Below are positions 3,152-63,953 of a stretch of DNA of 64,000 nucleotides, in pieces. The stretch lies in NCBI GenBank assembly GCA_963815095.1, contig CAWFFH010000003.1:1120001-1184000 (forward strand). Reading direction: 5' to 3'. Position 1 is the first letter of the stretch, and each line of letters opens with the position of its first letter. The DNA comes from Candidatus Bathyarchaeota archaeon. Lineage in GTDB: Archaea; Thermoproteota; Bathyarchaeia; Bathyarchaeales; Bathycorpusculaceae. The translations under genes and the position numbers were made by a program. Under the pieces are notes generated by a model that saw only the letters and a program-made list of their open reading frames with translations, was not told the origin of the DNA and did not search any database.

Positions 3152-3535
3152 ATGGATACTTTAACAAATGGTTTGATAACCATCAAAAACAACGAAACAC
3201 GCAACAAGCGCGAATGTATAATTAGCCCTGCCTCTAAACTTTTGGGACGCGTATTACGCATTATGCAGCTTAACGGTTACATCGGAGAATTCGAGTTCAT
3301 CGACGATGGACGCCAAGGAAAATTCAAAGTCCAACTGCTGGGTAGGATAAACAAATGCGGGCCAGTTAAACCACGTTTCGCCGTAAAGGTTGACGAATTT
3401 GAAGAATGGGAAAAGAAGTTCCTCCCATCAAGAGATGTTGGCATAATGGTTGTTTCAACTTCCAAAGGCGTAATAGGTCACAAAGATGCTGAAGGAAAAA
3501 ACCTTGGAGGAAGGCTCTTAGCCTTCGTGTATTAA
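3152..3535 (+). CDS. rps8: 30S ribosomal protein uS8
   Basis: GYIGEFEFIDDGR, GRINKCG, STSKG, GGRLLAFVY. Confidence 0.97.
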   Translation: MDTLTNGLITIKNNETRNKRECIISPASKLLGRVLRIMQLNGYIGEFEFIDDGRQGKFKVQLLGRINKCGPVKPRFAVKVDEFEEWEKKFLPSRDVGIMVVSTSKGVIGHKDAEGKNLGGRLLAFVY

Positions 3536-62340: not shown

Positions 62341-62997
62341 CTATTCTTCGTATTTTGTTAGATCCGCAAAGCATGCTTCCTTGAAGGCTTTTTTGCGATT
62401 TATGCAGGATTCGCATTTACCGCAGTGTTTGGCGTCTTCACGGTAACACGACCATGTCAACTCAAAGGGCACACCCAAATTGAACCCTTCTTCAATTACC
62501 TCGGATTTACGTTTGCCACTGAATGGCGCTTCAACACTAATGTCCTCACCAGTACCCAACCTTGCTGCTTTCTCAAATGCTTCGTAAAATTCTCGGCGGC
62601 AATCAGGATAAAACGGTTCATCTGAGCCATGTGCACCATAAAAAATCTTTTGTGCGCCGACTGAAACCGCGTAAGAAACCGCTACAGAGAGGAAGATTGC
62701 GTTTCTGAAAGGGACGATTATGGGTTGGCTGAACTCAGATGTTAGGGGGATGTTGGTGTTGCATAGTGAGGTTACGTCGCCGAAGACTTCCTTTAGTGCT
62801 GAAAGGTCGACGATTTTTGTTTTGGCGCCAAGGCTTTCCGCGATTTTTTGTGCACATGCGGTTTCTTTTACGGCGATTTGACCATAGTTGAAGGTTATAG
62901 GGTACACCTCATAGCCTTCTTTTTTTGCCCAATATGCCACTACAGCTGAGTCTGGGCCACCACTAAGGACAACTACACATTTTTCTTTTTTATTCAT
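62341..62997 (-). CDS. queC: 7-cyano-7-deazaguanine (preQ0) synthase
   Basis: SGGPDS, FNYGQ, VPFRN, YPDCR, TWSCY, CGKCESC. Confidence 0.95.
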   Translation of the reverse strand: MNKKEKCVVVLSGGPDSAVVAYWAKKEGYEVYPITFNYGQIAVKETACAQKIAESLGAKTKIVDLSALKEVFGDVTSLCNTNIPLTSEFSQPIIVPFRNAIFLSVAVSYAVSVGAQKIFYGAHGSDEPFYPDCRREFYEAFEKAARLGTGEDISVEAPFSGKRKSEVIEEGFNLGVPFELTWSCYREDAKHCGKCESCINRKKAFKEACFADLTKYEE

Positions 62998-63015: not shown

Positions 63016-63519
63016 TTAGTTTGCAAATTGTGTTTGGAAGAGACCGGTTTTTTTTAGTGCCTTAAAGACTGGCCATCCTATGAGAACGGTTGCAATGATG
63101 TTTCCTACGGCTACCCAAGCTATGGTGACTAACAGTGGTAACCCATACAGGTAAGATAGCATCCATCCCACTGTTGTTCCAATGACAATTGAGTATGCTA
63201 TGCATGTTCCGATTACTGTATAGTCGTTTTTGATGCGTTTGTAAACGTAATAGACCACAAAGGACATGACAAAAGAGGGTATGGTGTTAAGTAAGTCTAA
63301 TGGACCAGCTGTTGAAAATATGTTTGCAACGAATACTCCCAAGGTGTGTCCCAAAACTCCGGCTAAACCAAGCAGGGGAACAACACCAAGCATTGCATCC
63401 GCAACACGGAGGTTAACGGGTCCATATGAAAAAGCTCCAAGAACAACAACAAGAACTGCATAAAGTGCAGCATAAATCGCAATTATAGCTATATTTTTTG
63501 TTTGTATTTTCAATTGCAT
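63016..63519 (-). CDS. queT: QueT family transporter (queuosine-precursor ECF S component)
   Basis: AALYAVL, SYGPVNLRVAD, G..LG.F.AN.FS; cotranscribed with queC. Confidence 0.82.
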   Translation of the reverse strand: MQLKIQTKNIAIIAIYAALYAVLVVVLGAFSYGPVNLRVADAMLGVVPLLGLAGVLGHTLGVFVANIFSTAGPLDLLNTIPSFVMSFVVYYVYKRIKNDYTVIGTCIAYSIVIGTTVGWMLSYLYGLPLLVTIAWVAVGNIIATVLIGWPVFKALKKTGLFQTQFAN

Positions 63520-63592
63520 TTTTCTCCCTACTCCCGGGTTTTATTTTGGTTGGCGGAACGGGTAGGAGAATCAACTCACCCGCCAATTGCCC
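63520..63592 (-). promoter_or_regulatory. Structured 5' leader of queT-queC, candidate riboswitch
   Basis: Stem UUGGCGG/CCGCCAA; loop UUCUCCUACCCG complementary to the SD region CGGGAGUAGGGAGAA; A-rich linker. Confidence 0.55.
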
Positions 63593-63773
63593 ACTAAAAC
63601 TGTGGTGTAGCCTAAAAATGTTGTGAAAGATCTTCCTTTCAAACATTATTTCTTTGGTGTACTTGGGGCAAAAGTAGTTTTTTGTTAGTAAAGAAAGTTT
63701 GACTAAACTTAGTCAAGAAATCTTTACGAAAACGCATTTTACCTATGACTGAAAATAAGCAAGCAATGGAGAA

Positions 63774-63953
63774 GTGAAGGATACGGCGTTAAACCACTAT
63801 GTGATAAATCATAGGCTCTTAATACAAATGCAGAAGAACGGCAATATTTTCTGCGCTATATGTCACCAACCCATCGTTGAAGGACAGCGGGTTGCTTCAA
63901 GAAAAGCCACATCTGTTCGTCATGAAGAGTGCTATGAGCGTTCATTTGTTTAA
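63774..63953 (+). CDS. Small CxxC...HxxC zinc-finger protein (59 aa)
   Basis: GTG after GGAG; ...FCAICHQPIVEGQRV...VRHEECYERSFV*; followed by hairpin and T-tract. Confidence 0.6.
   Translation: MKDTALNHYVINHRLLIQMQKNGNIFCAICHQPIVEGQRVASRKATSVRHEECYERSFV

Follow-up and report, generated by a model that had tools for sequence, protein, structure and literature searches.

The queT gene of a Bathyarchaeia archaeon is preceded by a real, conserved and covarying pseudoknot that sequesters the Shine-Dalgarno (SD) sequence and is specific to 7-deazaguanine genes. The element is widespread in Bathyarchaeia and is present in other archaeal lineages. By analogy with known riboswitches and from its gene context, we consider it probable, at roughly two chances in three, that this leader represents a new structural class of riboswitch, a translational OFF switch for a 7-deazaguanine and most likely for preQ0. 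Like riboswitches in general, it is a conserved structured 5' leader tied to the genes of one metabolite pathway. To our knowledge, few riboswitch classes have been established in archaea.

Layout of the queT leader

The window is a stretch of 64,000 nucleotides of DNA from Candidatus Bathyarchaeota archaeon (contig CAWFFH010000003.1), and all positions given below for this genome are counted from its first letter. Read directly from the sequence, the leader pseudoknot occupies positions 63586-63522 of the minus strand, 5' of queT. An earlier note on this DNA had quoted the letters of the leader, which are identical to the minus-strand sequence of the window, and had proposed a 7-bp stem whose loop pairs with the SD region. 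Both pairings are found in the sequence: UUGGCGG (63586-63580) pairs with CCGCCAA (63556-63550) to form the stem P1, and the P1 loop is complementary to the SD region of queT, with an A-rich linker between them. The parts of the locus are as follows.

63613-63618, minus strand: TATA-like box TTTTTA, a putative promoter element
63587-63592, minus strand: predicted transcription start, at about 63589, from the position of the TATA-like box and the usual archaeal spacing
63580-63586, minus strand: P1 5' strand UUGGCGG, from the sequence, with pairing in the alignments
63571-63579, minus strand: L1, with invariant GU, then GAG and a variable stretch, from the parsed sequences
63559-63570, minus strand: 5' strand of the pseudoknot helix (anti-SD, UUCUCCUACCCG), pairing with 63536-63522
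63557-63558, minus strand: L2, the invariant UU between the pseudoknot strand and the P1 3' strand, from the parsed sequences
63550-63556, minus strand: P1 3' strand CCGCCAA, from the sequence, with pairing in the alignments
63537-63549, minus strand: L3, A-rich linker CCAAAAUAAAACC ending in AAA-A-CC, with CC 63538-63537 unpaired
63522-63536, minus strand: 3' strand of the pseudoknot helix, CGG-GA-GU-A-GGGAGAA (CGGGAGUAGGGAGAA; CCCGGGAGUAGGGAGAAAAAUG), in the register of the model-based alignment A6
63528-63523, minus strand: SD sequence GGGAGA, inside the pseudoknot 3' strand
63517-63519, minus strand: queT start codon ATG
63016-63519, minus strand: queT, 167 aa (Pfam PF06177, E 3.4e-22)
62341-62997, minus strand: queC, 218 aa (Pfam PF06508, E 1.8e-64)

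The 23-nt P1 loop GUGAGUUGAUUCUCCUACCCGUU (63579-63557) carries UUCUCCUACCCG, and the SD lies wholly within the pseudoknot helix. The two genes are separated by 18 nt and, given this spacing, are probably co-transcribed. The leader had also been described as GC-rich, and this holds: the G+C content of the motif is 52%, compared with 33% for the intergenic stretch upstream of it and 43.6% for the window.

In the window RNA, P1 alone is predicted at -9.6 kcal/mol and the duplex of loop and tail at -15.7 kcal/mol (RNAduplex), and a competing nested hairpin fold of the P1-loop segment, which uses part of P1, reaches -11.6 kcal/mol. The nested minimum-free-energy fold of 121 nt, a span that took in sequence upstream of the likely RNA start, does not stand out from shuffles (z -1.32; 24 of 200 are at least as stable), as would be expected if the real fold is a pseudoknot, which a nested fold cannot represent. 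The self-complementary CAAUUG occurs twice on the minus strand, at 63589-63584, where it forms the predicted 5' end and overlaps the first bases of P1, and at 63516-63511, directly after the start codon, and the nested minimum-free-energy fold pairs the two copies. Some leaders of the same genus have GCAAUU versus AAUUGC, the latter spanning a UUG start.

The position of the element within the mRNA can be predicted from the promoter. In 158 of 188 distinct upstream sequences, the first base of the best TATA-like hexamer falls between -39 and -30 relative to GCGGGT; in the window, TTTTTA (63618-63613) begins 35 nt upstream of the first G of GCGGGT and is followed by an AT-rich spacer of about 25 nt before P1. 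In archaea, the distance from the centre of the TATA box to the start of transcription is usually about 26 nt. The TATA-like box and this spacing together predict that the RNA starts 2-6 nt before P1, and with such a start the motif would be the very 5' end of the mRNA. A start near 63590 had been anticipated by the earlier note, and the TATA-like box at a fixed distance places it at about 63589, just before the stem, as a prediction from spacing.

Conservation, spread and covariation of the two helices

Homologues of QueT are encoded in 49 of 61 related genomes. Across 24 genomes of the same genus (the window's own included), in which QueT is 59-83% identical to that of the window, the leader is nearly unchanged from the stem to the SD; the alignment of relatives that the earlier note had proposed as a check has 30 invariant columns in these leaders. 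In other families of the order QueT is only about 30-38% identical and the leader is still recognisable. The leader is therefore conserved far above the coding sequence. Within the genus, the leaders differ in length by 1-9 nt, only in the first half of the loop and in the linker; this pattern speaks against the leader being coding.

Two covariance models were used to trace the element: R1, built on the relatives with P1 as the sole structure, and R2, which has the pseudoknot helix as its structure. The window copy receives E 5.9e-26 from R1. Within the order, R1 matches (E 0.01 or better) were obtained in 115 of 151 genomes, or in 84 of 105 if only high-quality ones are counted; every one of the 12 families has at least one match, and a genome as a rule has a single copy. 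R1 recovers all 24 same-genus loci and none of the four loci with a paralogous type of QueT. In the class, 92 of 151 sampled genomes have an R2 match; 27 of 151 do in a sample of the phylum (15 of the 131 of those lying outside the class), and 17 of 151 in a sample from the phylum of a record labelled Hodarchaeota. Ten of these last 17 matches are strong, with four on the first contig (C1) of their genome and up to 1.4 Mb into it; the other seven are weak (E 2e-4 to 9e-4), among them L297 and L298, which were re-scored. A scan with an exact pattern over one genome per prokaryote species found at least 120 stretches and returned 80 loci, and among these listed matches 73 match R1. The titles of the 73 are mostly Bathyarchaeia or Bathyarchaeota and otherwise, again among the matches listed, Nitrososphaerota, Methanomethylicota, Promethearchaeota and Hodarchaeota, these being deposited labels of bins that can be wrong. 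The remaining seven of the 80 listed loci are bacterial chance matches, none of which matches R1.

Some genomes have two model matches each (G135, G096, G168, G082, G111, G226, G233, G258, G278 and G430), and in G135, G096 and G168 both copies precede QueT paralogues. The second matches in G082 and G111 (L147 and L149) are partial, cover the tail only and are not confirmed by R2. They were dropped, as was L148 (G054:C21:10300-10380), a weak R1 match (E 4e-4), likewise without a match to R2, that appears to be the 3' half of a tRNA, i.e., its T-arm and the 3' strand of the acceptor (GGGUUCAAAUCCCACCCCCGGCGCCA), a part of tRNA which the core of the motif superficially resembles. These three loci were left out of the duplex test and the gene tally described below and were kept in alignment A3, where they contribute a few unpaired or odd cells. 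Divergent homologues of the motif include one type represented by L105 (CCACCUCC/GGAGGUGG) and another represented by L293.

Covariation in the leader had been named as a further check, and both P1 and the helix between the loop and the SD do covary, in Bathyarchaeia and beyond. P1 consists of five core pairs of invariant length and up to two outer pairs; it is paired in 93-96% of alignment cells, and its four inner pairs are almost invariant. Its innermost pair changes from GC to CG in five same-genus sequences (GGCGC/GCGCC), where the G-to-C change mismatches the competing hairpin and restores P1. A change from GC to AU (GACGG/CCGUC) is present in two sequences, further compensation is seen in UGCGG/CCGCA and in a change from UA to AU, and the outer pairs occur as UA, AU, CG, GC and GU.

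For the second helix, alignments A4 and A3 are the more independent of its structure in that they were fitted to P1 and the sequence, not to the pseudoknot. In them 85.3% (A4) and 87.2% (A3) of the cells of P1 and the pseudoknot are paired, and sliding the partner by 1-3 columns leaves at most 58.8% and 68.2%, respectively. Cells changed on both sides number 51 and 55 versus 25.4 and 27.9 in shuffles, with 0 of 500 shuffles reaching the observed value in each case; indels in the bulges misalign many rows of these two alignments. Realignment with R2 gave 94.9% paired cells and 65 both-side cells versus 21.6 shuffled for the own family (51 sequences, with eight of nine SD-helix pairs changed on both sides), and 94.3% and 144 versus 46.1 for the other families (85 sequences); the counts of A6 and A7 are the cleanest, but these alignments were fitted to the helix and so lean towards that structure. 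Many of the both-side cells stem from a few inherited register shifts (CUCCC/GGGAG, CCUCC/GGAGG and CACCUCC/GGAGGUG), and related sequences inflate the shuffle control. The set from the other phylum taken alone (12 sequences) has 85.5% of its cells paired, which is not clearly above the shuffles, 43 of 500 of which are as high.

Scattered variants are more telling than these bulk counts. In L210, CAUCUC stands with GAGAUG, so that two pairs have changed and the SD departs from its usual core. The loci L008, L050 and L219 have GUCUC with GAGAC and UGCCCG with CGGG..GCA; CCUCCU accompanies AGGAGG in L180, L190, L201 and L226, and CCUCG accompanies CGAGG in L297 and L298. For A(U)CCG with CGGA, the set of other families has 12 U-A versus 48 C-G pairs. 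Within the genus of the window, the base 3' of the SD core and the base 5' of the anti-SD form GC in 12 cases, UA in seven, GU in one and other combinations in seven, and this pair lies outside the stretch constrained by the ribosome. The ribosome itself limits change in the SD core, and the loop is similar to the 3' end of 16S rRNA, so that part of the complementarity would persist even without selection for pairing. In an alignment-free duplex test, cognate loop and tail pairs have a mean energy of -18.71 kcal/mol versus -16.65 kcal/mol for permuted ones, and none of 5000 permutations is as low; with reversed tails the values are -18.66 versus -18.16 kcal/mol, i.e., a difference of 0.5 kcal/mol compared with 2.1 for the cognate tails. 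We give this test little weight since the composition of G-runs and C-runs explains much of the energy.

The competing hairpin of the earlier note, which would free the SD, can form: CGGGUG/CACCCG is paired in 94.8% of cells. This value equals that of shuffles, and the hairpin has no compensatory change; the same is true of the loop hairpin GUGGG/CCCAC, at 91.7%. These loop hairpins may be the ligand-free state. In three leaders before QueT (L026, L145 and L146), CCCCAAAAGGGAGG replaces CCCCGG..GGGAGG, the loop ends in CUCCCUCCG(U/A)U, and the CGG partner of the loop CCG is missing; they have either a shortened pseudoknot or a CCC/GGG hairpin of the tail itself.

Several unpaired bases next to the helices are invariant. 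A simple expression parsed 196 of the 210 distinct motif sequences. In every one of the 196, P1 is directly followed by GU, the pseudoknot strand and the P1 3' strand are separated by UU, and the pairing CGG is preceded by AAA plus (C/U)CC or CC. The three bases after GU are GAG in 149, AGG in 30 and AAG in six of the 196. L1 is 8-20 nt long, L2 2 nt and L3 10-24 nt (median 11), and the entire motif spans 65-90 nt. This invariance of the junction, across lineages whose QueT proteins are about 30% identical, looks like that of a binding pocket.

Downstream genes and described preQ1 riboswitches

The genes behind the motif were tallied with tblastn for 222 matches of R2 or R1, of which 212 are distinct by the motif and the 125 nt downstream. 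QueT follows 202 of the 212 copies, a QueE-like radical-SAM protein four, QueC one (Pfam E 6.2e-63) and a 277-aa membrane protein without a family one; the last four copies abut a contig end and are not assessable. Thus 207 of the 208 assessable copies precede QueT, QueC or QueE-like genes, i.e., genes of 7-deazaguanine synthesis or uptake, and in the sample from the other phylum QueT lies behind all 11 assessable copies. The QueE-like proteins have the Pfam domains Radical_SAM and Fer4_12, and their top five NCBIfam matches are all QueE models, at scores under the curated cut-offs. The context of QueT, QueC and QueE-like genes points to a 7-deazaguanine as the effector.

The one membrane protein without a family (L187:5727-6557, minus strand) is a multi-pass protein for which no Pfam or NCBIfam match was found. 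A protein atlas gives a lead to clusters resembling ECF S-components (score 0.92-0.93, with PF07155 on 23% of the members), and this protein may be an unrecognised transporter of 7-deazaguanines.

PreQ0 is the product of QueC and a precursor of archaeosine. The genome of the window, which is 98.45% complete, encodes an archaeosine-type TGT (arcTGT), QueD and QueC as well as a weak QueE-like candidate, and no match to QueF was found in it. With arcTGT, QueD and QueC present and no QueF, preQ0 and not preQ1 is the expected free 7-deazaguanine, and preQ0 is likely also the cargo of QueT. The portion of one paper that was available describes QueT genes as sometimes placed under preQ1 riboswitches in bacteria and the salvage of preQ0 by archaea as probable (PMC5372724).

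The leader would work like a preQ1 riboswitch and, by Rfam matching and by its features, is a member of no described class. The earlier note had remarked that the sequence does not visibly follow the consensus of classes I-III, and the Rfam 15 models accord with this: no relevant family was found in window positions 63400-63800 at E up to 10 or in eight related loci at E up to 1. In particular, RF00522 has no match in the window (E up to 10) or in the eight loci (E up to 1), RF01054 none in the window or in those loci, and RF02680 none in the window. According to the accessible part of a 2024 review, there are three preQ1 classes, all of them bacterial: class I is a small H-type pseudoknot in which the specificity base is the C of a UC or AC ahead of the P1 3' strand; class II, limited to Bacillota, has an HLout pseudoknot and the pairing regions P1-P4; and class III, of about 100 nt, has five helices and an expression platform away from the pocket (PMC11625349).

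Like preQ1-I (types 1-3), the archaeal leader is an H-type pseudoknot with an A-rich L3, its 3' tail overlaps the SD and forms pairs with the P1 loop, it would act on translation, and it lies before que genes including queT. It differs in having UU in all 196 parsed sequences where class I, as described in the accessible part of the review, has UC or AC with the specificity cytosine, in its size (about 65-70 nt versus about 34), and in having a long L1 with an L2 of only UU, the reverse of preQ1-I. Here, moreover, the whole SD is taken up in a long bulged helix, and the leader is archaeal and probably senses preQ0, as judged by analogy. With preQ1-II (the COG4708/queT motif) it has in common the position before queT, a similar size, full occlusion of the SD in the pseudoknot helix and, by prediction, control of translation only, whereas class II has, on the same partial source, HLout topology and four pairing regions compared with two covarying helices in H-type order here; an embedded P4 hairpin finds no support in the archaeal leader, where the loop hairpins lack compensatory change. 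PreQ1-III likewise precedes queT and uses an anti-SD:SD helix as its expression platform, but its size of about 100 nt and its five helices, again as given in that part of the review, contrast with 65-90 nt and two supported helices. A search of full-text literature, with most subscription journals and supplements lying outside its coverage, returned no archaeal preQ0 or preQ1 riboswitch and no 'preQ1-IV'.

A second type of leader was seen in L027, L028 and L030, about 75 nt upstream of a QueT start near 1501 (in L030 near 1989, on the minus strand). The QueT proteins behind it come from the same genus and are only about 31% identical to that of the window. Its form is GGUAG-UUUCCGUAUAUAAC-CUACC-UUAAAAAACCCGGG.., followed by the start, and it shares a AAAACCCGG tail with the main motif; L1 is short and 'AC' precedes the P1 3' strand, as in preQ1-I. 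No Rfam family (including RF00522 at E up to 10) and neither R1 nor R2 matches it, and its pattern occurs in none of 121 genomes of the family, a sample with only three genomes of the genus. At L008, the 3' end of an archaeal 23S rRNA (3216-3477, minus strand) lies about 1.7 kb from the queT leader, at the end of the contig, and is an ordinary feature.

A proposed switch and its alternatives

The cis-acting 5' leader, about 70 nt long, folds as an H-type pseudoknot. The P1 loop contributes its 3' half, which mimics an anti-SD and ends in CCG, to a helix with the mRNA from CGG through the SD, and the A-rich L3 ending in CC and the invariant UU join both helices. We propose that a free 7-deazaguanine base, most likely preQ0, binds at the junction of P1 and the pseudoknot, lined by GU, UU and AAA(C/U)CC. 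The bound ligand would make the pseudoknot more stable and hide the ribosome-binding site, and the translation of queT-queC (elsewhere of queC or queE) would be shut off; in the ligand-free state, the C-rich anti-SD could be engaged by the G-rich 5' portion of the loop, so that the SD stays accessible. Stabilising the pseudoknot should prevent initiation, since its helix contains the complete SD; translational preQ1 riboswitches follow this logic. Since preQ0 is the expected free base, being the product of QueC and the likely cargo of QueT, an OFF switch sensing preQ0 is favoured over switches for CDG, for preQ1 from outside or for the archaeosine base.

Access to the SD could instead be set by a trans-acting factor, perhaps an archaeosine-pathway protein or a tRNA, for which the same pseudoknot serves as the operator. 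Structure and gene association would fit any cis-regulator of the pathway, and the cross-match of R1 to the tRNA-like L148, like the G-rich/C-rich core with its likeness to a T-arm and acceptor strand, may hint at a tRNA connection; R2, however, no longer matches L148. The motif is also small, with the invariant unpaired bases gathered at a helix junction, a trait of known pseudoknot aptamers, and its form is the same in two phyla and ahead of three different families of downstream genes; on these grounds an operator of this kind is considered unlikely. We rate lower still the chance that the structure acts without any ligand, as a constitutive damper of translation, an RNA thermometer or a stability element. 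Helices that sequester the SD can by themselves tune translation, and alternative hairpins are available in 92-95% of the sequences, but such a role leaves unexplained the invariance of the unpaired GU, UU and AAA(C/U)CC and the presence of the same leader before QueC and QueE-like genes besides QueT; a thermometer is further disfavoured by the occurrence of the motif in MAGs of very different habitats, to judge from record titles among the matches listed.

The leader might also belong, as a very divergent member, to the preQ1-I family. The topology (P1, a pseudoknot strand in the loop, an A-rich L3 and a tail overlapping the SD) and the gene context are the same, and the second leader type before a paralogous QueT, with its short L1 and 'AC', comes close to preQ1-I as the accessible part of the review describes it. 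RF00522, however, matches neither the window (E up to 10) nor that second leader type, UU replaces UC/AC, the proportions of L1 (8-20 nt) and L2 (2 nt) are reversed, and the motif is about twice the size, so that membership of this family appears the most improbable of the readings considered here. Returning to the preQ0-responsive OFF switch, we hold it slightly better than an even bet that the leader is a fourth 7-deazaguanine class and the first native to Archaea, one that senses preQ0 through a pocket of GU, UU and AAA(C/U)CC in place of the class I cytosine and that extends over Bathyarchaeia, other classes of Thermoproteota and Asgard-labelled lineages.

If this reading is true, few archaea-specific riboswitches would be as widespread as this leader, and archaea would have in it a translational switch that depends on the SD. 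Its small size and sharp definition make the motif suitable for a direct in vitro test of the hypothesis. A validated class would bring a new RNA fold to a much-studied family of ligands and would provide archaeal genetics with a natural ligand-controlled SD switch. The motif may also flag transporters of 7-deazaguanines that have gone unrecognised, the 277-aa protein of L187 being one candidate. For the archaea themselves, a validated switch would mean that they control both the uptake and the synthesis of archaeosine precursors by direct RNA sensing.
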